From assembly GCA_963704655.1 (NCBI GenBank), contig OY969927.1, positions 832,001 to 896,000 on the forward strand: a stretch of 64,000 nucleotides of DNA, given 5' to 3'. Numbering within the stretch: position 1 is the stretch's first letter; each line of letters starts with the position of its first letter. Made by a program: the position numbers and the translations under genes. Origin of the DNA: an uncultured Candidatus Babeliaceae bacterium. Its GTDB lineage: Bacteria; Babelota; Babeliae; Babelales; Babelaceae. Under the pieces are notes generated by a model, which saw only the letters and a program-made list of their open reading frames with translations, did no database searches and was not told the DNA's origin. Shown piece by piece: positions 823 to 36,344 of the stretch.

Positions 823-838
823 AAAACCTACAAATAAC

Positions 839-2230: not shown

Positions 2231-2417
2231 AAAATTTACTAAGCTAAGATTTTGCTTAGTAAACTCTAGAAAGTCTTAACAATGTATGTCAATAAATAAT
2301 TTTAAAATCAAGATGAAAAGCTAAATCCCCTTCGGGCAATATCTTGTTTTTCTAAGAACGACGGTTCTATTTTAATCAGTAGATTGTTTAATTTTTTTTT
2401 TAATCAGGAGAACAAGT

Positions 2418-3086: not shown

Positions 3087-3133
3087 AAAAAAATGTAGAT
3101 TGTTTAATTCTTTTTTTAATCAGGAGAACAAGT

Positions 3134-4616: not shown

Positions 4617-5513
4617 TTAATAACTATATCGCCCTTTTTTTGCAGCTTTTTCTTCCGCTAAGATATCACCTATTAACCCATACGCATCGTCATATGACAG
4701 CCCCTGCCACCGTATCCCGCGTTTATTCAGGATATCTATCTGAGCACCTGAAATCGGTCTAACAGGAGTAGGTTGTGCTTGTTGCACCGGCGCTAAAGCT
4801 GGAAAGTGCGCTATTAAATGTGCCTTTTGCGTTGCATCAAACCGATATCCACCACCAAACATATTTGAAAGTAATGTTTTAAAATAAGCATTTTTTTCAT
4901 AGAGCTTTGGCATCAAATTTCTCTTCCAAGCATCCAATTGATTTTTTGATGTATCAGCCAATTCGTGAATATATGCCTTAAAAATATCTTCCTGCATACT
5001 TAAAAAATTATTCTTATATTTTTCTGCAATCTCTTTTGATTTAATCCTTACTATATTTTCATTATTTACACTTGTCCGCGCATGACCTAAAGCACTTGCT
5101 GTTAGATTCGCTGAACCTGTCCATACATCTTCATCATCAATAATAATAAATTTATTATGCATTTTATTTTCATCGCCGTATGGTGATACAATCGGAACAA
5201 TGCCTGCGCTTAAAAATCTTTCCAATAAATTATCGCTATTAGATGTTTTACTATCATAGATAACTTGAACATCAACACCGCGAGCTTTTAAAAGTATAAG
5301 TTCATTAATAACTGGTTGGCTCGTTAACCAATATGAAGCAACAATAACTTTTTCTTTTGCTGTGTCAAACGATCGCAGCAATTCTCTTTGAAAAAGATTT
5401 GTATCATCGGGTATAAAATATACATTAACATCTGCAGGTACAGCGTTGAGTAACCCAAAAACCAACAAACAGAAAAATAGTACATTGTGTCTTAAAAAAT
5501 ATTTATTAGCCAT
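4617..5513 (-). CDS. Secreted phospholipase D / Nuc-like protein with a single HKD motif
   Basis: MHNKFIIID...WTGSANLT...NNEN; signal peptide; C-terminal extension. Confidence 0.9.
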   Translation of the reverse strand: MANKYFLRHNVLFFCLLVFGLLNAVPADVNVYFIPDDTNLFQRELLRSFDTAKEKVIVASYWLTSQPVINELILLKARGVDVQVIYDSKTSNSDNLLERFLSAGIVPIVSPYGDENKMHNKFIIIDDEDVWTGSANLTASALGHARTSVNNENIVRIKSKEIAEKYKNNFLSMQEDIFKAYIHELADTSKNQLDAWKRNLMPKLYEKNAYFKTLLSNMFGGGYRFDATQKAHLIAHFPALAPVQQAQPTPVRPISGAQIDILNKRGIRWQGLSYDDAYGLIGDILAEEKAAKKGRYSY

Positions 5514-5553: not shown

Positions 5554-7413
5554 TCAACTAAATGCAGCTGCCTGCCTAATTGGCCTTAAAAGACGATGAT
5601 AAACATAGGGCTCCCCATCTTTTTCACCAAAGGTATATTCTGCTCTGCAGTTCTGTTCTGCGCCTGTGGTAAGATTTTTGCGAGTAACTTCAGCAATAAG
5701 TTCATCTTCCGCCTCTGAAGAACCATCTTTCATAAAAGGAACAAGCTCCCCCACATATTGAATAACATAATCAAGCATCTGGGCAAAAGTATGATGCTCT
5801 ATGGTACTTTTTGCCAATTTCATCGCTTTTTTACCTTGTCCCTGCCTTTTTAAAATACGTTCATGATAACGAAGGCCCTTAATTTCTGCATAATTACGAT
5901 TAAGATCCGCTTTTGCCTTAACAATAAGCTCTTCATCTTGCTGCGGGTCCTCGATAACAAATATTTTATTTATTGGATCAATTTTACTCACAGAGCTACC
6001 ATCATCTACTTTGAAATTGTTGTTCCATTCTTTTGTGGTAATAGCAAATGGATCTTGCTCAGGCACTTTTGCAAATTGGCTAGAAGATTCGCCTTGCGTA
6101 ACTAGCGCAGGCTCTTCAAGAGTGGCCTTTTCTTTGCCTTTTTTTGATTTAGTTTTTTTCTTTTCTTCTTCTTGCAATAATTGCTGTTCTGCCCGCTCGG
6201 CTTTAATCTTTTTTATTGCTGGAAATAACTCATCCGTATCTAAATATATATCATCAAACTTATTCTTAGACTCTTCTATGAGCTTGAAACCTTCATTTTC
6301 ATTTTTATTTACACCAATACCAAAAAGGCGCATGTACCCGCGCGTTAAAATTACAGATCTTTGCGTGTTGTCAGTATCATTATAAATTTTTTTGAAATAC
6401 TCTTGTGCTTTTGCCTCATCTTTTTCAACACCAAACCCATAATGATATGCTATGGCTAGTTGCAATAGACCAATCGGCAGAATATCTATTTTGTTTGCTT
6501 CCGCTTGTTCAAGTATACGGATACCCTCTTGTTGTTCACCTTGTGTAATAAGTATCGTGCTATATAAAAATGCTGCTAAGTAATCTATTTTTGCCAGCTC
6601 TTTAAGCGATCCTTTTGCAGCTTGAGTATCGCCAACTATTTTTTTAGTCCATATTAGGCGCGCAATATGCGCCTTACCGCGTGCGCTATTTGCTTTCTCA
6701 AAATATTCACGGGCCTTAACTATGTTCGGTTTATGATCATTAAAGCCTTTTTCAGCCAAAAGGCCCAATCCAATGCATGCCAATTCGTAATTGTGAAAGG
6801 ATCGAATATGCTTTTCTGCAGGTAAATTTATAACCCTTAAAAACAAATCATGCGCTTTTTGTAAATCTTGTGGTATAACTTCATTTCCTTTGAAAAACTC
6901 AACAGCTAAATTGTAAATCCCCAGGGGATTATTTTTTGATGCCAATTTTTGATAATACTCAACAGCTGTTTTAACATCTTTTGGACCACCCTTCCCTTCA
7001 TTTAAAAGCTTGGCTAAATTGCTCATCGCATCATCTTCATAAGCAGTATGCATATCAATTGCTACTAGATAGTATTTTCTAGCCCTTCTATAATCTTTAT
7101 TTTCTTGATATTCAAATCCTAGATTATAGTTTTGTTCTAGAAATCCATGCGCTACAGCTTCAGACATATATCTTAATTTCTTATCTTTATCATTTTCTTT
7201 TATAGCCAAATCAGCCAAACGATTATAAGCATCAGGAATCCGATCACGCACCTGAAGAAGCATTCTTTCCGCTTCTGGCAAACTGTTATTACCCGCTATT
7301 AACATAGTCGCAAAATTATATATATATTCAGGATTGGCATCTGGGCCCGGATATCTAAAAAGTGCTGTGATTGAAGTAAAAGATAAAACTAGCAATACGA
7401 TTAAATAGTTCAT
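5554..7413 (-). CDS. Secreted Sel1-like repeat protein with uncharacterised C-terminal domain
   Basis: Sel1 motifs (NLAKLLNEGKGGPKD..AVEYY; LAIAYHYGFGVEKDEAKA); paralogue of 23247..25163. Confidence 0.9.
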   Translation of the reverse strand: MNYLIVLLVLSFTSITALFRYPGPDANPEYIYNFATMLIAGNNSLPEAERMLLQVRDRIPDAYNRLADLAIKENDKDKKLRYMSEAVAHGFLEQNYNLGFEYQENKDYRRARKYYLVAIDMHTAYEDDAMSNLAKLLNEGKGGPKDVKTAVEYYQKLASKNNPLGIYNLAVEFFKGNEVIPQDLQKAHDLFLRVINLPAEKHIRSFHNYELACIGLGLLAEKGFNDHKPNIVKAREYFEKANSARGKAHIARLIWTKKIVGDTQAAKGSLKELAKIDYLAAFLYSTILITQGEQQEGIRILEQAEANKIDILPIGLLQLAIAYHYGFGVEKDEAKAQEYFKKIYNDTDNTQRSVILTRGYMRLFGIGVNKNENEGFKLIEESKNKFDDIYLDTDELFPAIKKIKAERAEQQLLQEEEKKKTKSKKGKEKATLEEPALVTQGESSSQFAKVPEQDPFAITTKEWNNNFKVDDGSSVSKIDPINKIFVIEDPQQDEELIVKAKADLNRNYAEIKGLRYHERILKRQGQGKKAMKLAKSTIEHHTFAQMLDYVIQYVGELVPFMKDGSSEAEDELIAEVTRKNLTTGAEQNCRAEYTFGEKDGEPYVYHRLLRPIRQAAAFS

Positions 7414-7728
7414 ATATTATCCCTAAACAATAAATGCAGAGTTTTTATATCTTTCCTATTTAATCATTTAAATGCATTTACAGTCTATAAACGATGAAAT
7501 TATCATGAGAAGCCCTTATAAAAACCCTTGAACAGCTGCAGGCTCTTGGCAAAGATCAACTTTAAGCCTTTTTACGCCATTTATTTTTTATTCAATTTAT
7601 TATATAATAAGCCATATATGTGCCCAGCCTTCGCTTATCCACGCCATCGGGCTTGGTAAGTTATGCCCGGCACAGCCATAGCTTCCAGCTGGATCATCCA
7701 GCTTAAAACAGATATCCTTGATAACAAT

Positions 7729-7805
7729 GTGCCCATAGCTCAGCTGGATAGAGCAACGGATTTCTAATCCGTAGGTCGTAGGTTCGAATCCTACTGGGCA
7801 CACCA
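7729..7805 (+). tRNA. tRNA-Arg (anticodon TCT)
   Basis: Acceptor stem GTGCCCA/TGGGCAC, anticodon arm ACGGA-TTTCTAA-TCCGT, T arm GTAGG-TTCGAAT-CCTAC, encoded CCA; 77 nt. Confidence 0.98.
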
Positions 7806-9260
7806 ATTTCCAGTTTTTGCAGTTTCCATCACCACCCCAAATACGGGTTTAAGCTCCACGTCGATCTTTCCATCATTATAAGAACAGTTGGATGTTAAGA
7901 GCTCAATTATTCTTCTTTTAGCTGCAGCATTTCCATTTTTAAACAGCTCAGCCGCATTTTTCGCAAGTTCGATGATAAAGCGTGCATTTTCAAGATATTG
8001 TGTATCTGCCTTTTGAACAGCCAATAATTTTGTTAGCAGTTCTTCTTTTTCTGCCGACCATTTTTGAGAATTGGTCTTCCAGAATTCTTCACTGATTTTG
8101 CCATCGAGCTTATCTAAATAGACCTGATCGATTCTATTTTGTAATAAGCGTATCTGTTTTTCAAGCTGGGCAACCAAGCTATTATGGTATTCAATTTTGT
8201 CTTTTAAACTTTCACGAATTCCCTGTAAAATTATCTCTTGGTTTTCACTGGATACGTATAGGTTATCAACTATTATCGTAAATTGTTCTTCGATAGCTTC
8301 CTGTCGTATATATTCTTTCTTGCAGTTTCCTTTTGAAGTCGTGCAATAGTAATAAATATACTTATCCTTTTTAAGATCAGCTGTGAGCATACAGCCACAT
8401 TTGCTGCATTTTATAAGATTGGTGTAGGGAAATATCCCTTTCTTTGACTTGCTTTTACGTGGATTAAGAAGAACTTCCTGAACGCGTTGAAAGAGCTCCT
8501 TGCTCACCAATGGTTCATGGGAAGCATTTTCATATTTTTTGCCATTCCAGTAAAAAACACCCGTATAGAATTCATTTTTAAGGATAGTTTCAACTTTGCT
8601 GGTGTAGAAGTTTTTGCCATTACGATAAACCATCCCATCAGCTAACATCTTCTTGCGCAAAGACAGAAGAGAGTATGATCCAGTAGCATACAGTTCAAAC
8701 ATTTTCTTAACATATGGTGCTGTCTGTGGATCTACTAAGATGACCTTTTTGTCGCCTTTAAAGGTGTTAATATAACCATAAGGAGCTGTTGAAGGGTATG
8801 TTCCTTGAGCTGCTTTTTCAGTCATGCCTTTTTTAACTTCTTCTGATAGATTATCAATGTGATTTTTAGCCATAAGTGCTTTGATTCCAAAAATGAATTT
8901 CTCATTAGAACGTGCTTCTTTGCTAAGTATTACGTTCTCTTTAACAAGATGAATCCTTATATCACAGTCTTGTACGAGACGTTCCAGTAAGGCGTAATCG
9001 AACATGTTTCGTAAAAGTCGATCTGTTTTTTCTACTAAAAGATGCTTAACTGATCTGTTTTCATCAAAGAAAGCGAGCATTTTATTAAATTCTGTACGCC
9101 CAGCCTTTTTTGCAGTTTCTGCGTTAGCAAATTCTTTTACAATCGTATAATTGTTTTTAGCGGCATATTCATGTAGAACTTTAAGCTGCGCAGGGATCGA
9201 GAAACCTTCGACTTCTTGGTCTTTTGATGAAACTCGGGCGTAGATGACGGCTTTATTCAT
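7791..9260 (-). CDS. Large serine recombinase (integrase)
   Basis: YARVSS catalytic motif, DRLLRN, APYGY, zinc ribbon CSKCG..YYYC..C, coiled coil; 3' end overlaps the tRNA antisense. Confidence 0.96.
   Translation of the reverse strand: MNKAVIYARVSSKDQEVEGFSIPAQLKVLHEYAAKNNYTIVKEFANAETAKKAGRTEFNKMLAFFDENRSVKHLLVEKTDRLLRNMFDYALLERLVQDCDIRIHLVKENVILSKEARSNEKFIFGIKALMAKNHIDNLSEEVKKGMTEKAAQGTYPSTAPYGYINTFKGDKKVILVDPQTAPYVKKMFELYATGSYSLLSLRKKMLADGMVYRNGKNFYTSKVETILKNEFYTGVFYWNGKKYENASHEPLVSKELFQRVQEVLLNPRKSKSKKGIFPYTNLIKCSKCGCMLTADLKKDKYIYYYCTTSKGNCKKEYIRQEAIEEQFTIIVDNLYVSSENQEIILQGIRESLKDKIEYHNSLVAQLEKQIRLLQNRIDQVYLDKLDGKISEEFWKTNSQKWSAEKEELLTKLLAVQKADTQYLENARFIIELAKNAAELFKNGNAAAKRRIIELLTSNCSYNDGKIDVELKPVFGVVMETAKTGNWCAQ
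7796..7805 (+). repeat. att core, tRNA-proximal junction
   Basis: GGGCACACCA, the last 10 nt of the tRNA. Confidence 0.8.
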
Positions 9261-9288
9261 GATGCCTTTTCCGGATGCGTGTGAAATT

Positions 9289-9714
9289 TTATTTTTGTTT
9301 TGTTTTCATCCAAATAGCTACAATAGCACCTAACGCCAAAAATGTTAGCCCAAGTAAATCATTATTCGTGCTTTGCCTTTGGATTTGAGCTTGCTCTAGA
9401 TGTATTTGTTGCCGATAAGCCCTTTCTTCTTGCTGAAGTCGTTCTTGGTGAGCGATCTCTTCCTGCCGCAATCGTTCTTGGCGGGCAATTTCTTCTTGTT
9501 GCAGCTGCTGTTGATAGGCTATTTCTTGCAATTTTTGTTGGTGCATTAATTCTAATAGTTCGCGTTGTGCGGCCATTTCTCTTTGATGAGCTTGTTCAGC
9601 AGTCTTTTGGCGAGCAAGAGCCTCGAGAGCCTCGCCAATCCCTTTGCCTAGTGCGCTGCCAAAACGCGCTCCCGTACTTTCTGTCGGAGTAAATCCATTA
9701 GAAAAATTTGTCAT
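9289..9714 (-). CDS. Coiled-coil protein with Gly-rich N-terminus and C-terminal TM helix
   Basis: FGSALGKGIGEAL; 11-aa repeats of QEEIARQERL type; hydrophobic C-terminus. Confidence 0.75.
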   Translation of the reverse strand: MTNFSNGFTPTESTGARFGSALGKGIGEALEALARQKTAEQAHQREMAAQRELLELMHQQKLQEIAYQQQLQQEEIARQERLRQEEIAHQERLQQEERAYRQQIHLEQAQIQRQSTNNDLLGLTFLALGAIVAIWMKTKQK

Positions 9715-9737
9715 TATATTTCTTTATATTATTTTAA

Positions 9738-9932
9738 TTAGCTTCTTGAATAAGAATTGACGTATTTATACCCATTACTTGGCTTAAAATAACCTTTGGT
9801 ACTTTTAGTTTTAATCCTGCCTGTAGATTTGCTAACTTTTCCAAAGCCATCATACATAGCCTTCTTTGAAAGTAATTGAGTGGTTGAAATAAGGCATATA
9901 ATAGCGAATATTTTTACAAAATAGTGTTTCAT
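9738..9932 (-). CDS. Small basic secreted protein
   Basis: Signal peptide; KGYFKPSNGYKYVNSYSRS resembles the GYxRxxGxYVxxxxRS motif of small mobile-element proteins. Confidence 0.65.
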   Translation of the reverse strand: MKHYFVKIFAIICLISTTQLLSKKAMYDGFGKVSKSTGRIKTKSTKGYFKPSNGYKYVNSYSRS

Positions 9933-9962
9933 TTGGGTTTTTTCGATTATTGACAGATATTG

Positions 9963-10145
9963 TTATTCTTTTGATTCGACTTCTTTTTCATACAACAGAC
10001 GAATGCCTTCGCAAATAATTGTAGATCGGTCCGTTTTATTGCGATCACGTAGGCGCTTAATGAAGATCTCATCTAAGAGGTGTTCATCGGTTAACGACAT
10101 ATAAACGGTAGTTTTTGCCTTTTTTGGAACTTCCGATTCTTGCAT
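9963..10145 (-). CDS. Putative ribbon-helix-helix DNA-binding protein
   Basis: KTTVYMS strand followed by two helices (RSTIICEGIRLL); AAGGA RBS. Confidence 0.65.
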   Translation of the reverse strand: MQESEVPKKAKTTVYMSLTDEHLLDEIFIKRLRDRNKTDRSTIICEGIRLLYEKEVESKE

Positions 10146-10328
10146 ATTTTTCCTTAAATAATGAATTTTCTCTTATCTATAATGGCTCAATTAGAGAAAG
10201 ACGTCAAGTAATTAAACAAGTTAAATGCAAAAACTACTTTACATTATGTCATTTTTTGATAATTTTATAATAAGAAATAAATAATATAGCTTAATTAACA
10301 AAATCCAAAGATTATTGGGGAGGATATT

Positions 10329-12812
10329 TTGTCTACTATTGAAATTGGGATTGATTTAGGAACCACAAATTCCTCTATCGCGGTCATTCAACAAAATGCG
10401 GTACAGGGCATTAAAAATGCTTCAGGGGAAGAAAGTACCCCTTCTGTCATCTACGCTGATAAAAATGGAAACATTGTTGTCGGGTCGAGAGCGAAGAGAA
10501 TTATGAATAATTCCAAAGAAAACCTGCAAAATAGCAAGGCCGAAATCAAGCGTTTGATGGGTACAGCAGAGACTATTTTTTTCCCCAACTTGAATAAAAA
10601 AATGCTTCCCGAAGAAATTTCGGCAGAAATTCTGAAAGTACTTATAAATGATGCTAAGAGGAAGTACCCAGGGCTGCTTTTAGATGCGGCTGTGATTACG
10701 GTCCCTGCTTATTTTTCTACTGTGCAATCTGAGGCGACGAAAAGAGCTGGAGTTTTAGCGGGTTTGAGGCAAGTAGTTCTTCTTCAGGAACCAATTGCCG
10801 CAGCAATCGCATATGGTTTTCTTAATCAGAAGAACGAAAATTGGCTTGTATATGACCTAGGTGGCGGTACTTTTGATGTTGCTCTCGTAGCATTGCGTGA
10901 TGGATTTCTTACAGTTCTTGCCCATGCGGGAGATAATTTTCTCGGTGGTAAAGACTTCGACGCTGCGATCATACAAAATTTAATTCTTCCATCTCTTTCT
11001 ACCAAAGGTATCGTTTTAGATCCGTCAACTCACTCAGAAATCTTTAGTTACTTGAAAGAACTTGCTGAATTAGCAAAAATTGAACTTACCACGTGCGAAA
11101 GGACAACTATCGATATCGATGTCCAAGTAAATCAAGCCCAGGTCGAGCATTCTATTGAAATAACAAGGACAGATCTGCTGGAAAGCTGCAAACATTTGCT
11201 TGAAAAAACGGTCGACCTTTGCAAGAAGACAATCAGTGACGCCAATGTGGATCCAGCAACAGTTCAAAGAATTGTTCTTGTCGGTGGGCCGACACAAATG
11301 CCAATCTTACAAACTTTTTTGAAAAATTCCTTGCGAATCAATGTAGATGGAGGTTTAGATCCTCTACTAGTGGTTGCAAAAGGTGCTGCTATGTTCGGCA
11401 ATCAAACAGTAATCACTACCCCTGAAGGACAAGGGGATATCGACATATCAAACGTTTCCTGCCAGCTCGAAGTAAATTACAATCCAGTAACATCCGATGA
11501 TGAACAAATTGTCACAGGCAAGGTTTTGCGCATCACTGGTGCATCTCAGCCATATTCAGTTCAGTTTGCAAGCTCTGATGACTCCTTTGCGTCTGAAGAG
11601 ATTCTTATTAAAAATGGCAAATTTATACTGACGCTTCCTACAGGCAAAAAAGGTACATCATATTGGATTTATGTTAAAGACAATGATGGTCAGCTGATTA
11701 CTTCAGCTCCTGAAAGCATTCAAATTAATAGAGGCATTTCTATCATGGGAGCCCCCCTTCCTTATTCAATTGGCGTATCCGTGATTTCTCTTTCTTCCCA
11801 CAAAGGTTATGCTGATCCGACCGAGACAATAGAATTCTTTTTTTCTAAAAATAGCATTTTGCCCCTTAAAGAAAAAAAACGCTTTTATACTCTTGCCGAT
11901 TTAAGAGCAGGATCCTCCGAAAATGCTCTCCCTATTTGCATTTATGAAGGCGAATCTCTTATCACAAATCGAAATACTTTAGTCTGCCATTTGGCAATCA
12001 CAGGAAAAGCAATTTCTAAAGATTTGAAAAGAGGCACCCCGGTCGACATCACAATTGAAGTTAATGAATCAAGAGAGTTGAGTGTGATGGCCTATCTTCC
12101 GGATTCTGATATTACCCTTAATGCAAGAGAAACTTTGTATTTTGATGCTGCTAAAATTGACGAGGTAAAGAAGGATTTTACAGAGCAGGTAACACGCTCA
12201 GAATCCATAGCTGCATCTGCAGGGCCAATAAATGAAACCAATGGCATCAAGAATATGATTAAAGATATTCAATCTACTATCGATGACTCAGGATCAGACT
12301 CAGATCAGCAAAGAAAGGCAGAAAAACAAGTAAAAGACTTGATGATGGCCCTTGATCGAATTGAGGCGAAAACAAAATTTAATAGCAATGTTGCTACTTT
12401 CTGGCAAGAATGCCAGGAGCTCACTGATTATCTGGAAGATTGTAATCCGCCTGATAAACGCACCGAATACGAAGCCACATATAATACTCTTCGTAAAGAA
12501 GGATTAATGGCTATATCTAAAGAAGATGCGATATTATTAGAGCATATTGTTCAAAAATTGAGTCGACTTAATTTCAGATGTGTGTATAACGATGTTCGTT
12601 ATCTGACCTCATGGATTAAAGATTTAATAAAACAGGTGCAGGAAAAGGCCCATCTCCATCCTACTCTTCCAGACTTAATCAACAGAGCCAAAGATGCCCT
12701 AGCTAAATTAAATGTAAAAGAGATGCAGGAGCTTATTCATGCGCTTGATCCATTTACGGAGGAAGAAGGAAAGCATCAGGTTCGATTTGTGAAGTCGGGA
12801 ATTACGTTATGA
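10329..12812 (+). CDS. Atypical Hsp70-family protein (827 aa, not housekeeping DnaK)
   Basis: GIDLGTT, TVPAYF, EPIAAA, YDLGGGTFD, LGGKDFD and LVGG motifs; TTG start with GGAGG RBS; ~110-aa insert before the substrate-binding domain. Confidence 0.95.
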   Translation: MSTIEIGIDLGTTNSSIAVIQQNAVQGIKNASGEESTPSVIYADKNGNIVVGSRAKRIMNNSKENLQNSKAEIKRLMGTAETIFFPNLNKKMLPEEISAEILKVLINDAKRKYPGLLLDAAVITVPAYFSTVQSEATKRAGVLAGLRQVVLLQEPIAAAIAYGFLNQKNENWLVYDLGGGTFDVALVALRDGFLTVLAHAGDNFLGGKDFDAAIIQNLILPSLSTKGIVLDPSTHSEIFSYLKELAELAKIELTTCERTTIDIDVQVNQAQVEHSIEITRTDLLESCKHLLEKTVDLCKKTISDANVDPATVQRIVLVGGPTQMPILQTFLKNSLRINVDGGLDPLLVVAKGAAMFGNQTVITTPEGQGDIDISNVSCQLEVNYNPVTSDDEQIVTGKVLRITGASQPYSVQFASSDDSFASEEILIKNGKFILTLPTGKKGTSYWIYVKDNDGQLITSAPESIQINRGISIMGAPLPYSIGVSVISLSSHKGYADPTETIEFFFSKNSILPLKEKKRFYTLADLRAGSSENALPICIYEGESLITNRNTLVCHLAITGKAISKDLKRGTPVDITIEVNESRELSVMAYLPDSDITLNARETLYFDAAKIDEVKKDFTEQVTRSESIAASAGPINETNGIKNMIKDIQSTIDDSGSDSDQQRKAEKQVKDLMMALDRIEAKTKFNSNVATFWQECQELTDYLEDCNPPDKRTEYEATYNTLRKEGLMAISKEDAILLEHIVQKLSRLNFRCVYNDVRYLTSWIKDLIKQVQEKAHLHPTLPDLINRAKDALAKLNVKEMQELIHALDPFTEEEGKHQVRFVKSGITL

Positions 12813-14626
12813 ACATCCAGCTACCGCAGGTTTTGATTAGAAATTCATTCAATATACTAGGCCTTTCTTCTTCTGCTACTTTAAAGGAAATTAGAAAAAG
12901 AACTCAGCAACTTTTACAACTTGCAAAAATTGAAGAGATGCAAAAGTTTGATGCTGATATCGGGCATGTCTGTGAATTTCGAAATGAGAACGAAGTTCGG
13001 CTTGCAATGGAAAGAACATCGAGCGTCAAGGAACGCCTACGGGAAACCTTTTTTTGGTTCGATGACCATAATATAGAAAATCAGAAAGCCATTGCCCTTA
13101 TTTCGCAAGAGAATTATCGTGAAGCTATAGCTATCCTCGAAAAAACGAATGCTGCAAGCATGGATTGGTTAGAGCATAAGAACTTAGCCCTGGCTTTGAT
13201 TTTCCAAGCCTTTGCTTCCTCGGATCTTAGTAGTTTTAGTCACTCATTAGAGTTATGGAAACGAATCGTAGAGTCTGAAGTTTTTTGGAAGTTCTATGAA
13301 AAAAATTATATGCTTCATGATGAGTTTGGAACGTCTACATTCTTATTTCAGGAATTTAGAAGCTCAATTTACGAATCTTTATCCGCAATGACAGTTTCTT
13401 TCTATCATCAAACTAAAAATCCTGAAGCCATAGGCATTTATTTTTCTGAATTCGGTCAAATAGAAAAATCTATAGACTGTGAGGTTATTCAGCCAATCGT
13501 GACTAAGATTAAAAAAGAAATAGAAGACTTAGAAAAAATAGCTTCAGAATCGAGCAGCGATGCGAGCTTGATAAAGCAGGCTCTAGAAAAAATTCATAAA
13601 TACTTTGTGAAACTGGATCAATTTAAACTCTTCGAATATTCGCCATTAACTATCCTAAAAAATGACTCTGCTGAAAAATTACGATCTATTTCTATTGATA
13701 TCTATAATCAGAGTGAGAATGCTGAGTTAGCCTCATTGTTCCTTGATCAAAGTGCAGAGCTTGCTATTTCTGATGTAATTGTAAGAAAGATTGAGTCTGA
13801 CAAAAAAGTGATAAAAAACAATGAATTATGGGAGGCAATTTCTACCAGGTTCAATCGAATAAAAGAATTAATCGCAGAGAAAAAAATCGAAGAAGCTAAA
13901 AGTGTTTATTACGATTTGGACAATGAACTGGCTAGGCAAAATAACGGGTCATCTAAAGATACTAGAATCGTTCTGCTTATTCGCCTTTGCTATCAATTGA
14001 TGGGGAAGGGACATGAACTTTTCAATAAAAAAAAGTTTGGTATCAAGATTCTTGCGATTGGCGCTTTTTTAAATCGGCAAAATCATAAAGATGCGATACA
14101 TATTTTTGAGTATGTAATTGAAATATTGATGAATAAAATCTCTATATTAAGTTTTATAGATATTTACAATGACAGATCTTATCTCTTAAAAGAAATAGAA
14201 AATATATCAAACTCTCTAGAAAATTGTGAACTTTCTGATTTAATAAATGAACATGAACCGTACTTAAAATCACTAGAAATGTTTGCCGATGGGCAAGAGA
14301 ATGAGGATACGCAAGCTGTAATACATGTGCTAGGTTTTGCCATATACTTTAGCATTTTGTATCGCAGGATTCGTGGTATTATGCAAAGAAAAATGTGGCA
14401 ATGGGTAGCTTGTGGAACGGTAATTGCCTTCTATTTCTTAGTAATTATGAATAATGACAAGTGCGAATCAAAAATTGAGAAAGCTTTAACCTACGAAGAA
14501 AAAAGTATTATTGAATATTTGCAGGAAAATAGCCCGGAAGTACTTAAGAATATTAGAAGGGAGGGTTATTCTGATAAACAGATAGCCCAATATGCTTTAG
14601 ACCAAATAGCGAATGAGAAAAAATGA
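12809..14626 (+). CDS. Degenerate J-domain-like, helical-repeat protein with C-terminal TM segment(s)
   Basis: NSFNILGLSSSATLKEIRKR resembles J-domain helices I-II but has no HPD; hydrophobic WQWVACGTVIAFYFLVIM; ATGA overlap with the Hsp70 gene. Confidence 0.75.
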   Translation: MNIQLPQVLIRNSFNILGLSSSATLKEIRKRTQQLLQLAKIEEMQKFDADIGHVCEFRNENEVRLAMERTSSVKERLRETFFWFDDHNIENQKAIALISQENYREAIAILEKTNAASMDWLEHKNLALALIFQAFASSDLSSFSHSLELWKRIVESEVFWKFYEKNYMLHDEFGTSTFLFQEFRSSIYESLSAMTVSFYHQTKNPEAIGIYFSEFGQIEKSIDCEVIQPIVTKIKKEIEDLEKIASESSSDASLIKQALEKIHKYFVKLDQFKLFEYSPLTILKNDSAEKLRSISIDIYNQSENAELASLFLDQSAELAISDVIVRKIESDKKVIKNNELWEAISTRFNRIKELIAEKKIEEAKSVYYDLDNELARQNNGSSKDTRIVLLIRLCYQLMGKGHELFNKKKFGIKILAIGAFLNRQNHKDAIHIFEYVIEILMNKISILSFIDIYNDRSYLLKEIENISNSLENCELSDLINEHEPYLKSLEMFADGQENEDTQAVIHVLGFAIYFSILYRRIRGIMQRKMWQWVACGTVIAFYFLVIMNNDKCESKIEKALTYEEKSIIEYLQENSPEVLKNIRREGYSDKQIAQYALDQIANEKK

Positions 14627-15696
14627 TAAAATTTGCCAAACCATCATTTCCGCCTGGATGGATTTTGCCTGACGGAGCGAAGATTTTAAAAAGAATCGAT
14701 AAGCAAGAATTTGCTGAAGTGTTTGAGCTGAATACCGGAGAGTATCTTTATTTATTTCATGAAGAAAAAATTGCAAAAAAACTCAAAAGCCGCGGAATTT
14801 CACATGAAATCTATTTTATTAGCGGTGCAAAAGCTATTGGGAAAAAATATTCTGACCATAAAGATGGTGATCTTCCAGAAAGGTTGAAAAATATTATCCA
14901 AAGAAGAGGGCTAGATGCTATTGCAGGTATGACTGCACTTAAGAACACTTTAGTTAGAGATGTTATTCAGCCGTTTCTAAACTGGGAGGCATATGAAAAA
15001 TATGGCGTTACCCCATCTAATGGTATTCTTTTATTCGGCCCTCCTGGTTGCGGTAAAACATTTATAGCAAAAAAACTTGCAGAGGCAATGAAAGCTGAGC
15101 TTATTGAATTGAGCGAGGGAACCGTTGGTAGCCCTTATATTCATGCAACCTCCACAAACATTGTGCAGGCGTTTCAAAAAGCTGCGATGGTAGCTCCATC
15201 TGTACTCTTTGTAGATGAAATTTCAGGATTAATGCCAAGAAGAGATGGACTATCTTCACAAGAGCAATACAGAGAAGCAGAAATCAGCGAATTTTTGATG
15301 CAGATGGAAAGCAGTGTAAAGAATAAAGTCCTAGTAGTTGCAGCAACTAATTTCCCAGAGAAAATCGATCCGGCAATTTTACGTTCTGGGCGAATGGATA
15401 AAAGAATCTTTATCTCACCCCCTGATGCAGAAGCAAGATGCGAATTATTGCACCTGTTTTTAGAAGAAAGACCCATTGATAAAGAAATCGACTTTGAAGA
15501 ACTTGCCAGGATCACAGAAGGGCTAATTTCTTCTGACCTAAAATTAATAGCTAACAATGCTGCCCTGAAGGCGCTACATAAGAATGCATTAATTTCTATG
15601 GAGTTATTAGCAGAAGAAGCTTCACAGTTTAAGCCATCCTTAACTCAAACTGAACTAAATCGATATCGTGAATTCGAAGGCTACAATAGAGGTTAA
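14623..15696 (+). CDS. AAA+ ATPase (classic clade, single module)
   Basis: GPPGCGKT, LFVDE, AATNFPEKIDPAILRSGRMDK second region of homology; ATGA overlap. Confidence 0.95.
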   Translation: MIKFAKPSFPPGWILPDGAKILKRIDKQEFAEVFELNTGEYLYLFHEEKIAKKLKSRGISHEIYFISGAKAIGKKYSDHKDGDLPERLKNIIQRRGLDAIAGMTALKNTLVRDVIQPFLNWEAYEKYGVTPSNGILLFGPPGCGKTFIAKKLAEAMKAELIELSEGTVGSPYIHATSTNIVQAFQKAAMVAPSVLFVDEISGLMPRRDGLSSQEQYREAEISEFLMQMESSVKNKVLVVAATNFPEKIDPAILRSGRMDKRIFISPPDAEARCELLHLFLEERPIDKEIDFEELARITEGLISSDLKLIANNAALKALHKNALISMELLAEEASQFKPSLTQTELNRYREFEGYNRG

Positions 15697-16156
15697 AATC
15701 TTTTTTATTAATAATAACGACGGAGTGCTTCTGCGCATGTTGAAATTTAATGATAACTTTAATTCAGAGGCATTTTAATTCAGACAAAAGTGATAAAGCA
15801 TCTAAAAATCGTTTAAATATACAGCCCAATATTAAGTTAAAATAAATATCTTTTTCGTTATTAAGGCAAAGAACTTAATTATGATAATTTTGTAAATGCT
15901 TTAATACGTTGGTATTTCGTTATTGATATATTGCATAAATCCATCTATACGCGGAGATCTCTTCCTTTTTGGGATTTTGCTTGCATTTCTTTTTAACGAC
16001 AAGATAAGGTAAAAAAATAAATAGAACTTATACACGAGAAGAATAATGGATTATGAAACTCTTCAATCGCTTGCTACCTTTACGTTTTTTTTATCAGTTT
16101 ATAATTGGTTTAAAATATGTAAGTGCAAATGTGAGCGAAAATAAAGAGGTATCAAA

Positions 16157-16378
16157 ATGATGGGCGCTGTTTTAGAAATTCTATCAATGATAGTATTTTT
16201 TTCTGTATTCCCATTAACTTTTTATTTAATTTTCTATGTGGTTACTAAGATTGGAAAAAATAAGATAGTAACAGATGAAAAGACCAACCAACACAATCAA
16301 TTGGTTAACCTGCTTCAAACGATTATCTGGCTCCTAATTGTTTGCATAGTGCTTTTAATTACTCGATGGCACTATTAG
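16157..16378 (+). CDS. Small two-TM membrane protein
   Basis: GAGG RBS; two hydrophobic segments. Confidence 0.65.
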   Translation: MMGAVLEILSMIVFFSVFPLTFYLIFYVVTKIGKNKIVTDEKTNQHNQLVNLLQTIIWLLIVCIVLLITRWHY

Positions 16379-16414
16379 ATTTTTCTTTACTCAATCTCGC
16401 TGTATGGCACTTCA

Positions 16415-16816
16415 TCACATATATTTTGGGATTTCTACAACAACAACTTTGGTTTCCCCTTTATTTTCTGATTTATCCCTTAAGTTCATCAACCACTTAC
16501 GATATTTGGGGTCATACAAAGGCATTGTATGCAGAACTATCTGCTTATCTAACACCCCTTCTTGAGCAAGGCGTTCACGTCTTGAGCCTATTAATGTTAA
16601 GGCTATATCGTAAGCTTTGGCAAAGTATTCTGAGTTAGCTGGCAAATCATGAAAGATTTTTGGTGACATCATAATGCTAATTGGGAATTCATCTAAGGTA
16701 AGCGCATCTGGGTTCTTCGCCCATTCGGCAAACTCATCTGCCAATTTTTGATACTCTTCTTCACTTGTAGGTGCTGTACGAAATTTGAGCAATTTATTTT
16801 TTTTAGAAGCTGCCAT
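16415..16816 (-). CDS. Putative terminase small subunit-like protein
   Basis: 133 aa; helical/HTH-like N-terminal half, 'YFAKAYDIA' helix, terminal beta strand KVVVVEIP; coupled to the HGG gene. Family call is by resemblance only. Confidence 0.5.
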   Translation of the reverse strand: MAASKKNKLLKFRTAPTSEEEYQKLADEFAEWAKNPDALTLDEFPISIMMSPKIFHDLPANSEYFAKAYDIALTLIGSRRERLAQEGVLDKQIVLHTMPLYDPKYRKWLMNLRDKSENKGETKVVVVEIPKYM

Positions 16817-17069
16817 ATGATATCTCCTGGCTATAGATTAAATCTTTTAGTGTTCTGTGGCTTTTTCGTATCTCGCTAATTAAGCTACGGTTATGTGTCC
16901 GTTCCGCCTTTGCAACTTTGGTTTTATGGCCATGCTTTTTGGGTATCGCTCCCCCATGGTAATAGCATCTGCCATTTTTCATAGCTGCTTGACGGCACGA
17001 TAAACCGAAATTACTTCTTGCTTTAGCACCGCATCTTGGAAGCGATTTAAAATTCATCTTGAAGCGCAT
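16803..17069 (-). CDS. HGGxSTG-domain protein
   Basis: PRCGAKAR...CRQAAMKNGRCYYHGG motif. Confidence 0.85.
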   Translation of the reverse strand: MRFKMNFKSLPRCGAKARSNFGLSCRQAAMKNGRCYYHGGAIPKKHGHKTKVAKAERTHNRSLISEIRKSHRTLKDLIYSQEISYGSF

Positions 17070-17152
17070 AAAATATCTTTCGTAACTGTTTTATATGAAA
17101 ACGACGAGAATTTTTTCTCGTCGTTATAAAGCTATTTTAGAATGTATAAAAA

Positions 17153-17500
17153 TTATTCTCCCAACAAACCGTGATCTTTGAGCTCTTTAATAGCATCAGG
17201 AGAGTCTTGCAAAAGCGTTTGAATTAATTGCGGTTTTCTCATTTGCATCATTGTCGCCATCATAGGATTTTTAAGATACTGGCTATAATCATATAATGCC
17301 AATTCAACTGCATTGCTAACGCCTAAAGCTTCCTTTTGTTGCCCAGCCAAGTTTTTAACAATGTCTGTTTTTTCAATAAAATGGTCAAAGCCAGCTTGTT
17401 GTAATCGAGCTGTTAAGACCTTAGCTTCTGGTAAAGTTATCAAAACTGCTTGAAGCGAAGCTCCAGTAACTAGTAAACTTAAAAACAAAAGTTTTTTCAT
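17153..17500 (-). CDS. Small secreted hypothetical protein (moron-like insert)
   Basis: Likely start MKKLLFLSLL at 17500 with AAGGA RBS; hairpin downstream at ~17099-17126. Confidence 0.75.
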   Translation of the reverse strand: MKKLLFLSLLVTGASLQAVLITLPEAKVLTARLQQAGFDHFIEKTDIVKNLAGQQKEALGVSNAVELALYDYSQYLKNPMMATMMQMRKPQLIQTLLQDSPDAIKELKDHGLLGE

Positions 17501-17591
17501 AATATTCCTTTGTAGATTGGTTTGTTTTAATTTAAGACTTTCTAAAGAAATTATAGAATGAATACCAAAAAATATCAAAGAAGCGCATGGG

Positions 17592-18044
17592 CTATTCTCC
17601 ATTTTTAGATTTGCCCCCTACTTGAACCATCGCATTAAGCACAGCGTTGCCCTCAGAATGCACGTTGTAGTTAACGTTAATAGTTTGACTCTTGCCACGG
17701 TACTGTTGAAGTGTATTAAGAGCCTGGTGGCTAAGTCTTATCATCATCATTCCCTGCCCTATAATGTTGTAATTATCTTCTTCAATAATGGACATGGCCT
17801 TTAAGTGAAGCGCGACATATTGTGCAGCAAGTATAGACTCAACAGTATCTTTGGGATTAATACCTCGTATTAAGGCAATAACCGCATCAACATCCTTTGC
17901 TGAAGGATCATAAATAGACGGGCCATAGATCATGAGCATTGCACGATTTACAAGCAGCCTTGCCGCATCTTGATTATCGCAGTTTATAGCTTCAACAAGA
18001 AGTGAAATTTGACTTGGCAACGATATTTTTTTTGTTTTCGCCAT
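17592..18044 (-). CDS. Conserved mobile-element protein of the type usually found upstream of HGGxSTG genes
   Basis: PKDTVESILAAQ..ALH and QTINVNYNVHSEGNAV motifs. Confidence 0.7.
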   Translation of the reverse strand: MAKTKKISLPSQISLLVEAINCDNQDAARLLVNRAMLMIYGPSIYDPSAKDVDAVIALIRGINPKDTVESILAAQYVALHLKAMSIIEEDNYNIIGQGMMMIRLSHQALNTLQQYRGKSQTINVNYNVHSEGNAVLNAMVQVGGKSKNGE

Positions 18045-18055
18045 GGATATTCCTC

Positions 18056-18287
18056 GGTTGAAAGGTTGAACGACTTCATTATCATGTTCAAATTATAATT
18101 CTAGCTCTAGGTCGATGGATTGCTGTCGATAAAAGGCTTGGTTGAAGGGTTGATAAATCTTATTACTCATTTTAAGTATCGATCTTGATCAACCCTTCAG
18201 TTTTAATTATTCATTATTAAATAAATATAGCCTATAGGATGTTTTTTAGGTTGAAACTACATTTCAACTTTTTTCAACAACTTCAAC
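18056..18287. repeat. Iteron-like direct and inverted repeats (putative origin)
   Basis: GGTTGA(A) at 18056, 18064, 18140, 18148, 18249; inverted TTCAAC at 18263, 18273, 18282; 12-bp inverted repeat 18143-18154/18188-18199. Confidence 0.6.
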
Positions 18288-19949
18288 TATTACAGGTTTA
18301 TAGATCCAATCCTTTCGGTGCTCTTTTTTTTCAAAAGTTACTCTACCACTGTCGATTAAAGTTTGAAAAATATACTCATATTCTTTAGAACCACCCTTCA
18401 ACTTTTTTGAGGTAATAATTTGCGCCCACGTAACAGGTCTTTTTGAAGCAGCAGCCCATTTGCAAAGAGCTTCATGCATTATACGGCACTTCCGTTCATG
18501 CTCAGACTCTCCCAATTCTCCCTCAAAAAGCTGAATTGTGGACTGTATAGCGCGATGCAAGATCGCAAAAGCAGCCCAGAGGGCTTCCTCGCTTATATCT
18601 TTTGTAGTCGGATCTATAAAAAGCTGTATGATCATTGCTAACTTTAAAAGATACGGACTCCATCTTTTTAAGTATGGGTCTAAGATTTCTCGACTTCGGT
18701 CGCTATAAGCTTTTGGCATATCATTGATTTTTTTATGCATCGCTTCAAATACTGCTTTTGCAGAGCCTGCAAGAGGATTGAAGACGTAATTGTCACTTAT
18801 CGCATCTAAAACATCCATTATTTCTGCTTCAATTTCATGATCCGTTTTTTCTGTGTGGGCAGGCAAAGCAGGTGGAACTTCTTCTTGATGAGGTGGCGTA
18901 AAAATCAAAAAGCGGGCGAAAAATCCACTAGGGATATCCGTTATTTTAAGGTTATCTTGAATCCAAGGTAAAGTAGAAACGCCACATATGGAAAAGCAAG
19001 GGCGTTCTAATATACAATCGCCCTGTGTTTTGGTTTTATATCTATAAGATGGTGGAACATCATAAAGTTCGGTGAATATAGCTTTTAAATCATTATTATG
19101 GTTTTTATCAAAATTTTGTAACCATGCTCCAAATTCACTGGCAAGAATAACTCCTTGATGCCCTTGGCTTAGATGTTCGAGTAGGGCCTCTGCTGTCATT
19201 TTATTAGGCAAAATGACGTCTTGTCTTGAAATCGCAAGTATATCTTCCTCGATCATTTTTTTTTCTTTTGGATCTATTGTTATGCGGAGTGATGCATGTA
19301 ACTTTTTGATCTGATCAGTTATGATTTTATTTTTTACCCAAGCAAGGTTGGCCCCTTTATTAAGTGCCGTGCTCTTAAATTGTCCGCTTTTTGTGATGGA
19401 TAGTATCCATAAGTTAGGAAAAAGAGTTTGAAAATATGGGTATGAAACACGCTTTCCTAAAATAGCAGAGATTGTAGCCATCACAGACATTGTTATCATT
19501 ATTGGGTGCGCATTTGTTGTTTCGCAAATAGAGAGTATATAAGTACTGAGTGGAGGCGGTAGAAGCGATGGAGTAAAACCTTCGCAAGGATCGTCTTTTT
19601 TTTGACCAACCACAGACAATTTCTCGAGCTCTAAAGGTAGAAGATCATTCAAGCCGGCTTTGTCACAGAGTGAGTTAAATTCGGCTTGTTCATTTTCATT
19701 TAGCGGATGCGAATCATAAGTATACTCAGCGCCATCGCCCCAGTACATACATGTTAAGGATTCTTGATTATTTCTTAACGTAACTGATGCCATATACATA
19801 GCTGGTTTATTATAAGGTTGGGCTATATATTCGTAAGTATTACCATCTGGTGTGATCGGTCCATCTATGGCCAGATCATGTTCAGCCATATGTTGTCGAC
19901 ATTCTTCAAATAAATTACGTTTTTTTATGATATAATTAAGATTATTCAT
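18264..19949 (-). CDS. DUF3987/YfjI-like replication protein (helicase-like)
   Basis: NLWILSITKSGQFKST (Walker A-like), TAEAL, SEFG, SICGVST, SGFFARF motifs. Confidence 0.8.
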   Translation of the reverse strand: MNNLNYIIKKRNLFEECRQHMAEHDLAIDGPITPDGNTYEYIAQPYNKPAMYMASVTLRNNQESLTCMYWGDGAEYTYDSHPLNENEQAEFNSLCDKAGLNDLLPLELEKLSVVGQKKDDPCEGFTPSLLPPPLSTYILSICETTNAHPIMITMSVMATISAILGKRVSYPYFQTLFPNLWILSITKSGQFKSTALNKGANLAWVKNKIITDQIKKLHASLRITIDPKEKKMIEEDILAISRQDVILPNKMTAEALLEHLSQGHQGVILASEFGAWLQNFDKNHNNDLKAIFTELYDVPPSYRYKTKTQGDCILERPCFSICGVSTLPWIQDNLKITDIPSGFFARFLIFTPPHQEEVPPALPAHTEKTDHEIEAEIMDVLDAISDNYVFNPLAGSAKAVFEAMHKKINDMPKAYSDRSREILDPYLKRWSPYLLKLAMIIQLFIDPTTKDISEEALWAAFAILHRAIQSTIQLFEGELGESEHERKCRIMHEALCKWAAASKRPVTWAQIITSKKLKGGSKEYEYIFQTLIDSGRVTFEKKEHRKDWIYKPVIVEVVEKS

Positions 19950-20011
19950 TAAAATCTCTTTTCGATTGAGGCCATCTTGGCATATGGTGGCCTTATTTTG
20001 TTATGGATATG

Positions 20012-20278
20012 TCAATTTCTAACAATTTCTTCAAACTTTGAAACCACCTCCCTCTCTATATGTTCCGCTACTTCTTTATTAATTGGGTAAAAAACATTGA
20101 GTCCTCCAGTGTGGTACTTTCTGGTCGGGTAAGTTAATCGGTATCCGCCACGAGGGCGAGTGAAGATACCTATCGCACTCATATAAAAACAGTCATTTAA
20201 AATGAAGCTTGCGAATCCTACTAAGCCATTTTGGGGTTTAACAGGTGTGATCCGGATATTGTTGATTTGATATTGCAT
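20012..20278 (-). CDS. SpoVG-family nucleic-acid-binding protein
   Basis: INNIRITPV...GLVGFASFILNDCF...I...YPTRK...FYPINKE pattern. Confidence 0.8.
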   Translation of the reverse strand: MQYQINNIRITPVKPQNGLVGFASFILNDCFYMSAIGIFTRPRGGYRLTYPTRKYHTGGLNVFYPINKEVAEHIEREVVSKFEEIVRN

Positions 20279-20426
20279 ACGTTTTTCCTTTATTTACTTT
20301 TTGTTTTTGATCAAGTTCCATTAATGCTATAAACAGATCTGCAAGTTGCTTGCGCTCATCTGCTGATATCGGCTGTGTTCCTCGTGGAGGAATATGAATT
20401 TGCATTTTTAAGGATTTTTTAATCAT
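20238..20426 (-). CDS. Small hypothetical protein
   Basis: First ORF of the leftward replication operon, overlapping the SpoVG start. Confidence 0.5.
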   Translation of the reverse strand: MIKKSLKMQIHIPPRGTQPISADERKQLADLFIALMELDQKQKVNKGKTYAISNQQYPDHTC

Positions 20427-20447
20427 GGGGCTATTGTAACCCCATAT

Positions 20448-20479
20448 GTTAGGCCTAAATTAGGTCTAACTAGACTTAA
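20448..20479. promoter_or_regulatory. Putative operator array
   Basis: TTAGGCCTAA / TTAGGTCTAA / CTAGACTTAA; the first two form a near-perfect inverted repeat. Confidence 0.5.
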
Positions 20480-20580
20480 TCCACAAAGCGTTGAATCGTG
20501 CGTGTGTGAAGGTATTTAAAGAAATTGTAATGATGGCTATAGCTAAGAAAACTTTAATTTTAGCCCAAAAAGTATCGAAT

Positions 20581-21756: not shown

Positions 21757-21950
21757 CTTTTATGGTTTTACATTTTTAATTTCAACAAAAAGGATACAGT
21801 ATATTTTGATCTAACACATAATTTATTTGCAGAAAATCATCAGGTTTTGCCGTTAGCAGCAATTATTTTTTTAAGCTATTGCTGGTAGGAACAGACGAAT
21901 GGCGTAGATTATGCTATTTTCTATAAAAGAGTTGGTGAAATATTCCGATA

Positions 21951-21960
21951 GGGCACACCA
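21951..21960 (+). repeat. att core, distal junction
   Basis: Second GGGCACACCA, just beyond the last element gene. Confidence 0.8.
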
Positions 21961-22180
21961 TCCTGCGCCTATTCCAGCCGTCGCTGCCATGCAGCTGTGG
22001 CGGACAGGCCAGGCCAATTCACAGCCGAAGTGTGACAAAGCCTTGGCAGAGACGTATTGGCAAGCTACGCCAGACATGGTAATCTTAAAATAAACTCAAT
22101 TTTGTTGTTTTTAAGATAAAGCGCTCAGCGCACCATGCAGCTTATCTTCAGAAACAACTTTCATTAAATCGGTAAAAACT

Positions 22181-36322: not shown

Positions 36323-36344
36323 AATAAAAAAGAAAATTATCTTC

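Follow-up and report, generated by a model that had tools for sequence, protein, structure and literature searches.

A stretch of 64,000 nucleotides from an uncultured Candidatus Babeliaceae bacterium (GenBank assembly GCA_963704655.1, contig OY969927.1, positions 832,001 to 896,000 of the forward strand), called here the window, contains three adjoining genes, the trio, that encode an atypical Hsp70, a J-like membrane protein and an AAA+ ATPase. Its sequence places the trio, in a compact form, in an operon family that is widespread, has yet to be named and is built on a distinct Hsp70 of ~830 amino acids (aa). The operon is accessory, sporadic and mobile. The reading of the trio as a membrane-tethered, ATP-driven protein-remodelling machine is well supported by what the genes encode, with the assembly of the parts and their location at the membrane being predicted. 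A role for this machine in conflict, either anti-phage defence or competition between mobile elements, is the likeliest of the roles considered, at about even odds, and it rests on association.

The three open reading frames (ORFs) run at 10329-12812, 12809-14626 and 14623-15696, all on the + strand, and encode 827, 605 and 357 aa. An earlier note on this DNA had described them as coupled by ATGA overlaps, and the coordinates and both junctions are as it gave them. Gene 1 starts with TTG and has GGAGG a few bases 5′ of the start. The best upstream match to a sigma-70-like promoter is TTGATA-18-AATAAT at 10256-10285 (+), agreeing at 10/12 positions; it is weak evidence and stays a candidate, because the scan gave fewer sites than shuffles did. 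No terminator-like site was seen on the + strand 3′ of 15696. The best explanation for the trio is a single, horizontally mobile module, for which co-transcription is predicted.

Gene 1 is a member of the Hsp70 superfamily, having the nucleotide-binding domain (NBD, residues 1-360) with the catalytic motifs, the beta part of the substrate-binding domain (SBD-beta, 481-602) and a lid. Pfam HSP70 (PF00012) matches residues 6-382 with E = 2.3e-84. Aligned to this genome's own DnaK, the protein retains the phosphate-binding and catalytic motifs, has an insert of ~100 residues (358-455) between the NBD and the linker and SBD, and ends in a helical part of ~200 aa that is far longer than the one in DnaK. 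These are the intact ATPase motifs, insert and long helical tail of the earlier note, which had put the insert at ~110 aa. The AlphaFold model, with a predicted local distance difference test (pLDDT) score of 78.5, has the insert as a beta domain (~378-468), followed after SBD-beta by the helical tail (610-809) and a disordered end. The C-terminus carries a conserved S-G-I-T motif. Foldseek aligns the model with full-length DnaK structures over 640-790 columns, the best at 2.2e-40. Invariant columns are found along the whole length of 37 Hsp70 family members, including the S-G-I at the extreme C-terminus. The K-R that precedes the NEP motif in DnaK is V-V in gene 1, and V150 is almost invariant in the family, which speaks for a partner pairing distinct from that of DnaK.

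The curated models do not name gene 1 as any of the established types. As DnaK it scores 288.3 bits against a cut-off of 648 (NF001413) and 287.4 against 822.55 (TIGR02350), with only the NBD aligning, and as HscA it scores 258.3 bits against 708.55 (TIGR01991). No HscC-specific model was among its NCBIfam matches, and at 827 aa with an insertion it departs from HscC proteins, given as 550-580 aa with deletions in a review (Mayer 2021, PMC8215388). In a tree the family sits on a long branch apart from the genome's DnaK and divides into a compact clade and a long-form clade.

Gene 2 is a J-like, helical-repeat membrane protein with a degenerate J region at ~9-85, the sequence FFWF, a helical body, a hydrophobic region at ~503-547 and a tail. 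The hydrophobic region has a clear segment at ~529-547 and a weaker one at ~503-518, compatible with a hairpin or a single pass, and is followed by a 55-aa helical tail that is conserved in close relatives. There is no family match in Pfam (PF00226 included, E ≤ 0.01), NCBIfam, PADLOC or PHROG. The model (pLDDT 88.6) is all-helical and begins with short helices at 7-17, 25-40, 60-71 and 73-81. Foldseek gave weak TPR-like matches, the best at E = 9e-4, and a VIA wide fold search retrieved generic helical repeats whose Z reached 10.7, under the level that goes beyond a common arrangement.

The N-terminal 95 residues of gene 2 are its most conserved part, with a family consensus of N-A-Y-x-I-L-G-L, then S-A-x-x-K-D-I-x-K-R, then F-F-W-F. 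A profile of this region finds 14 matches in the PDB at E ≤ 10, and 13 of the 14 are J domains, although the best is weak at E = 0.02. Against five J domains from this genome, hhalign gives a probability of 90% and E = 1.4e-6 over 31 columns. The J-domain signal appears weak but consistent. Canonical J domains require the motif HPD to trigger Hsp70. At the aligned place gene 2 has K40-I41-E42, and most relatives have K-I-D, so that the residues by which J-domain proteins are recognized are absent. The profile, the hhalign result, the K-I-E and the hydrophobic segments together support the prior description of a J-like protein lacking HPD and ending in one or more membrane segments. A complex prediction of Hsp70 residues 1-620 with gene 2 residues 1-95 scored 0.16, where the mark was 0.32, which says nothing for or against binding.

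Gene 3 encodes a single-module AAA+ ATPase with an N-domain of ~95 aa. PF00004 matches at 7.9e-33 together with the lid domain AAA_lid_3, and with Walker A and B, a second region of homology carrying arginine fingers, and the lid, the protein belongs to the classic clade. Conservation of Walker A, Walker B and the arginine fingers extends over 46 sequences, in agreement with the intact single module and small N-domain read from the sequence before, and the pore-loop position is aromatic-aliphatic-His. The best solved relatives are VAT, p97 and Cdc48 D2 (6.5e-80), so the closest module is the D2 of Cdc48/p97/VAT. Among PADLOC families the best match is IetA (2.9e-33); the IetA and TRIP13 matches are generic.

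The earlier note had asked whether the three genes occur together elsewhere, and they do. A word index gives 48 relatives of gene 2 that are 41-63% identical to it; those with a name belong to Protochlamydia naegleriophila, Rhabdochlamydiaceae, another Chlamydiae metagenome-assembled genome (MAG) and an Alphaproteobacteria MAG. The compact trio is present in three genome loci, L001, L002 and L004 in our numbering of loci, with pairwise identities of 76-79% for Hsp70, 75-79% for AAA+ and 59-65% for gene 2. Both junctions are ATGA in L001 and L004; in L002 the first is ATGA and the second is ATAATGA, where the genes abut. In a Chlamydiae MAG (L003, 8178-9561) there are two pieces of a gene 2 remnant and a truncated AAA+ gene without Hsp70, as if the trio were on its way to being lost.

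An exhaustive search with gene 2 finds 309 representatives (at 50% identity) with E ≤ 1e-3, mostly matching over residues ~9-340. The 80 metagenome loci retrieved with the alignment of distant members have a longer operon, in which there are a GrpE-like protein of ~173 aa, Hsp70 of ~837 aa, a gene 2 relative of ~540 aa, 1-2 membrane proteins, AAA+ of ~359 aa and DUF6804. Most relatives are of this long form, and the trio in the window is of the compact form. The GrpE-like protein (L034 2952-3470 and its equivalents) scores near or below the Pfam GrpE cut-off, and looks membrane-anchored because of an N-terminal hydrophobic segment. The membrane proteins interleaved in the long forms are Yip1-like, RDD-like or single-pass with a Cys-containing outer domain, and they have in common an acidic-hydrophobic N-terminus, approximately L-x-h-D-L-D-F-L-D-E, ahead of the first membrane segment; the motif is absent from 7000-23000 of the window. 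Such proteins are seen at L026 7589-8918, L034 7635-8243, L078 7652-8897, L085 6982-7554 and L093 7461-8027, and some relatives of gene 2 carry a similar outer domain as a C-terminal fusion. The long forms thereby share the membrane theme seen in gene 2.

The linkage was counted over all 84 loci. Hsp70 is directly upstream of gene 2 in 65 of the 66 loci with at least 2.6 kb of upstream sequence, the exception being the decayed L003; AAA+ is downstream in all 46 loci with at least 2.8 kb on that side; and 39 of 40 loci covered on both sides have all three genes. These counts overstate independence because several loci are near-duplicates. The family ranges over candidate phyla radiation (CPR) bacteria, Chlamydiae and other symbiont-type genomes; a Levybacteria MAG is the source of one long-form Hsp70 with a name. 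Neither the trio nor the family has a name in PADLOC, Pfam or NCBIfam, and the earlier statement that the trio matches no named system stands, with PADLOC-DB v2.0.0 and NCBIfam naming none. We found no description of the operon in the literature, although a wider phylogeny of Hsp70 and J-domain proteins (Barriot et al. 2020) may cover the clade, and no mention of DUF6804 in the papers searched.

In the window the trio is cargo of an integrated element, as had been proposed. The integration target is a tRNA-Arg with anticodon TCT (7729-7805, +, found by ARAGORN), and the 3′ end of this tRNA is overlapped by the end of a large serine recombinase ORF (7791-9260, -, 489 aa). From its domains (Pfam Resolvase 2.7e-24, Recombinase 1.4e-19, Zn_ribbon_recom 1.4e-08; PHROG integrase 3.7e-78) we identify this recombinase as the integrase of the element. 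The 10-nt sequence GGGCACACCA from the tRNA 3′ end occurs just twice in the window, where 0.02 copies are expected, at 7796-7805 as the attL core within the tRNA and at 21951-21960 as the attR core at the right boundary. Since the two copies mark both ends, the element is ~14.2 kb long, of which the trio takes up 5.4 kb. This repeat was recognized by reading the sequence; a search for direct repeats of at least 14 nt at the element ends found none, and in an empty-site comparison the right-flank gene had no match in 5 genus relatives.

The element backbone includes a DUF3987 primase/helicase-like replication protein (18264-19949, -; Pfam 4.8e-23, PHROG DNA primase 7.6e-23) and a small SpoVG-like protein (20012-20278, -; Pfam SpoVG 2.2e-10). 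The trio is oriented opposite to the backbone genes: apart from the trio, the ORFs of at least 70 aa within 7791-21756 are all on the - strand except for two short + ORFs in 16157-16638, which agrees with the strand pattern reported before. A Pfam scan of 12 element proteins found no GrpE or DnaJ family, as was also claimed, and no peptidase, McrB-like or GAP1-N2 GTPase, or McrC/DUF2357. Elsewhere in the genome there are a DnaK, a GrpE and 6 matches to PF00226. Next to the trio there is a Q/E-rich coiled-coil ORF with a C-terminal hydrophobic segment (9289-9714, -), and on its other side a 73-aa ORF with two hydrophobic segments (16157-16378, +), both without a family match.

How sporadic the operon is can be seen in the phylum of the window, where 3 of 261 genomes have a match to gene 2, this one counted, and none of 5 genus relatives does. 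The two other matching genomes in the phylum have the neighbouring genes too. In the order of a chlamydial Parachlamydiaceae MAG there are 5 matching genomes among 200, with a strong match in 3. One genome has two copies. The trio is accessory. That it might be an ordinary, vertically inherited heat-shock operon of the host is suggested by the names of relatives in public records, 'molecular chaperone DnaK' or 'Hsp70 family protein'. We regard that as highly improbable: gene 1 scores far under the DnaK and HscA cut-offs, the genome has a canonical DnaK elsewhere, the trio lies inside an integrated element, and 258 of the phylum's 261 genomes lack the operon, as do 5 of 5 relatives in the genus.

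The backbones around the operon differ from one locus to another. L001 has a serine recombinase beside pheS. L002 has a TerY-P-like triad on one side, and on the other a primase, a DUF927 helicase and a tyrosine integrase. L004 has an AAA_27 protein with a metallophosphatase, with no recombinase visible and no PADLOC match among the neighbours. For the long forms we scanned 145 flank ORFs in 48 loci, dropping the decayed L003 and the near-duplicates L023, L030, L036, L037, L041, L044, L061 and L073 (9 loci), ORFs under 130 aa, and neighbours of the GrpE-like and DUF6804 kinds; the three compact loci had a scan of their own. A large serine recombinase is present in 13 of the 48, and in L074 and L081 there is a tRNA beside it, as in the window. 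In IMG/VR there is one locus with the operon (L098), and a long-form gene 2 protein had no match in deposited phage genomes.

The operon could also serve the mobile element itself, for example by handling the element's own membrane or transfer proteins, by helping to remodel its replication complex, as DnaK does for lambda and P1, or by excluding rival elements at the membrane. That members far apart in the family (in the window, in L001 and in 13 of 48 loci) adjoin a large serine recombinase speaks for such a role, as do recombinases 28-31% identical to the one in the window at related loci, a relaxase with a coupling protein in L045 and a Rep protein in L047. Roles of Hsp70 in phage and plasmid replication are also established, according to the review (Mayer 2021, PMC8215388). 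On the other hand, the backbones are unrelated: L002 has a tyrosine integrase and a DUF927 helicase, L004 has no visible backbone, and most loci have no recombinase within their flanks, so an exchangeable cargo fits better than a core function of the element. We judge this role to be distinctly unlikely.

Beside the serine recombinase there are similar low-complexity 'ORFs' in several loci (L028 7977-8537, L074 2163-2786, L085 1612-2175, L088 1532-2056). This recombinase-adjacent stretch looks like conserved non-coding DNA, and no Rfam family matches it. In L050 a LOOT RNA (10175-10290; Rfam RF03000, 90.5 bits) is also beside the serine recombinase.

Known defence genes are found beside relatives of the operon at a higher rate than beside ordinary genes, as judged with a crude control. 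Of 150 flank ORFs from 50 loci, 36, spread over 25 of these loci, match a PADLOC model at E ≤ 1e-10, versus 2 of the 47 ORFs of at least 130 aa that the window has outside the element (odds ratio 7.1, p 0.0024, with a control from another genome and loci that are related). The two control matches are a PLD-type protein with a weak DrmC match (4617-5513, -) and a RecD-like helicase (36300-38516, +). Among the neighbours, L098 has a GajA-like and GajB-like pair (Gabija, 8-3795) ~3 kb upstream of the operon and a Trypsin_2 peptidase just downstream, and L026 has SduA (Shedu) with two candidate systems beside the operon. AbiEi/AbiEii are found in L055 and L072, SoFic in L016, L027, L048 and L051, Old-like proteins in L040 and L089, AbiU in L093 and PD-T7-5 in L053, while methylases are beside the operon in 4 loci.

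The earlier note read the trio as a defence or protein-remodelling machine that senses or dismantles phage proteins. The richness of the relatives' neighbours in defence genes, by this control, favours the first part of that reading; for the sensing or dismantling of phage proteins the analysis brought no support. We infer a defence role from the neighbourhood, and a conflict role more broadly from mobility, patchiness and neighbours together.

Several findings weigh against a membrane machine engaged in defence. The control is crude, with 47 ORFs from another genome set against related loci that are not independent, and many of the PADLOC models involved (methylases, UvrD, helix-turn-helix) are generic. 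Some neighbours are housekeeping genes, such as MreB/MreC in L034, a release factor in L039 and AcrB in L062, and those of L004 match no PADLOC model. No recognizable effector (nuclease, NADase or pore toxin) was found in the trio. The Hsp70 and gene 2 match no PADLOC-DB v2.0.0 family at E ≤ 0.01, and gene 3 matches only as a generic AAA+, its IetA/TRIP13 matches being generic and its 105 bits falling far short of the 510 that the curated model asks for. Since canonical J domains need HPD, it may be that gene 2 does not work as a J protein at all. Lastly, the recurrent proteases near the operon suit protein quality control as well as they suit defence.

These proteases directly follow the operon in six loci: Trypsin_2 in L001 (11046-12413), L079 (4874-6238) and L098, and S49/NfeD-like in L016 (10373-11326), L021 (11179-12045) and L090 (9076-9924). 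After the peptidase, L001 encodes a 202-aa protein with E-F-L-D-F-L-N-E near its N-terminus.

The proteases belong with a further explanation, that the operon is a mobile module for quality control or stress tolerance which refolds or extracts damaged (membrane) proteins and makes the host more tolerant of heat or envelope stress. In this it would resemble the heat-resistance loci that proteobacteria transmit. All three proteins of the trio are chaperone-type ATPases or co-chaperones, there is no effector domain among them, and the long forms add a GrpE-like exchange factor and membrane proteins, all of which this explanation would accommodate along with the S49 and Trypsin_2 proteases. But the host is already equipped with DnaK, GrpE and J proteins, the operon is accompanied in the scanned loci by neither a small heat-shock protein nor a disaggregase of the ClpB/ClpG type, defence genes are frequent as neighbours, and the loss of HPD is unusual for a general chaperone cycle. 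On balance we find the quality-control module rather unlikely.

Returning to the membrane-tethered machine, we can propose how it would work. The gene 2 protein would sit in the cytoplasmic membrane by its C-terminal hydrophobic segment or segments and hold the dedicated Hsp70 there by means of its degenerate J domain and helical-repeat scaffold. The J-like domain may dock on the NBD through an altered interface, in which K-I-E meets V-V instead of HPD meeting K-R, and the helical body might hold the conserved tail of the Hsp70 or motifs of the client. The Cdc48-D2-like AAA+ ring would then thread or extract the client captured by Hsp70. In the long forms the acidic-hydrophobic N-terminal motif of the interleaved membrane proteins could be the handle, and in the element of the window, where the motif is absent, gene 2 would bring its own membrane segment.

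A bolder proposal is that this is a new immune or exclusion machine whose Hsp70 would be a fourth prokaryotic type. The HPD-less J-like scaffold in the membrane, helped in the long forms by a membrane-anchored GrpE-like factor, would place the Hsp70 at the inner membrane face, where it would pull as a motor and pass membrane proteins, either an invader's or sentinel ones, on to the Cdc48-like unfoldase, with the acidic motif as the handle. Such a machine would correspond, in bacteria, to the import motor of mitochondria coupled with Cdc48-type extraction. We put all this forward tentatively, as an idea more likely wrong than right.

Outside the element, the window has paralogous repeat proteins of ~620-640 aa on either side of it (5554-7413, -, and 23247-25163, +), in opposite orientation and with a common C-terminal domain. 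At 2418-3086 and 3134-3802 (+) there are tandem, near-identical copies of a 222-aa protein that looks secreted.

Comparing with known systems, the review lists three types of prokaryotic Hsp70, DnaK, HscA and HscC (Mayer 2021, PMC8215388), and the ~830-aa Hsp70 fits none of these listed types. It has its own J-like and AAA+ partners, and in most relatives its own GrpE-like factor as well. The two nearest working models are HscC with DjlB/DjlC from E. coli, and DnaK with ClpB. In the first, a non-DnaK Hsp70 has dedicated, probably membrane-related co-chaperones, does without the general GrpE, and has a sporadic spread suggesting horizontal transfer (PMC8215388). The differences are that HscC is 550-580 aa with deletions while the trio Hsp70, at 827 aa, is lengthened by its beta-domain insert and its helical tail, and that DjlB/DjlC are counted there as J-domain proteins (PMC8215388) while gene 2 has K-I-E for HPD. 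No AAA+ partner is described for HscC, and the trio has one.

DnaK-DnaJ-GrpE with ClpB is alike in being an Hsp70 system with a ring AAA+ that threads clients, and the long forms also have a GrpE-like gene. ClpB, however, is a two-ring Hsp100 with a middle domain, and gene 3 is a 357-aa, single-ring, Cdc48-D2-like protein; also unlike DnaK-ClpB, the J partner lacks HPD and the genes are in an accessory mobile operon.

The mitochondrial import motor consists of mtHsp70, Pam18, the HPD-less Pam16, Tim44 and Mge1. The analogy, useful as a working picture of a pulling motor, would be an Hsp70 placed at the inner face of a membrane by an HPD-less J-like protein with a GrpE-type factor. The trio differs in adding an AAA+ and in having no channel component identified, and shared families are the only homology compared.

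Recruitment of Hsp70 to predicted defence systems has precedents in CoCoNuT, with its CnuD (PMC11090510), and in the GTPase-centred Hsp70/GrpE/DnaJ-TPR systems (PMC7159879). It is by GTPases of the McrB or GAP1-N2 type that these systems are defined. CnuD is given a degenerate Walker A, and the trio Hsp70 has intact ATPase motifs. As a CoCoNuT or GTPase-centred Hsp70 system the trio was rejected, with no McrB-type or GAP1-N2 GTPase and no McrC/DUF2357 among the 12 element proteins scanned or in the flanks of L001, L002 and L004. IetAS was rejected too: gene 3 reaches 105.2 bits against the IetA cut-off of 510, scores higher for Cdc48, PAN and FtsH than for IetA, and has no subtilase or peptidase partner in the element. 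For gene 2, a likeness to ARC6 and the J-like division proteins of cyanobacteria, which span the membrane and have an N-terminal J-like domain and a helical region, is architectural only; the nearest named clusters in a protein atlas were the cyanobacterial 'plastid division regulator ARM repeat/DnaJ', at 0.80-0.82, under the lead threshold.

If the operon is a defence system, it would be the first to be centred on an Hsp70 cycle and a Cdc48-like unfoldase without a nucleic-acid enzyme, and if it is not, it would offer a design for an Hsp70 working with an HPD-less partner at the membrane. The compact, three-gene version makes either directly testable. Set beside the systems above, the trio is specialised Hsp70 machinery in a variant form of its own, and there is a real chance that it is a new kind of defence system.

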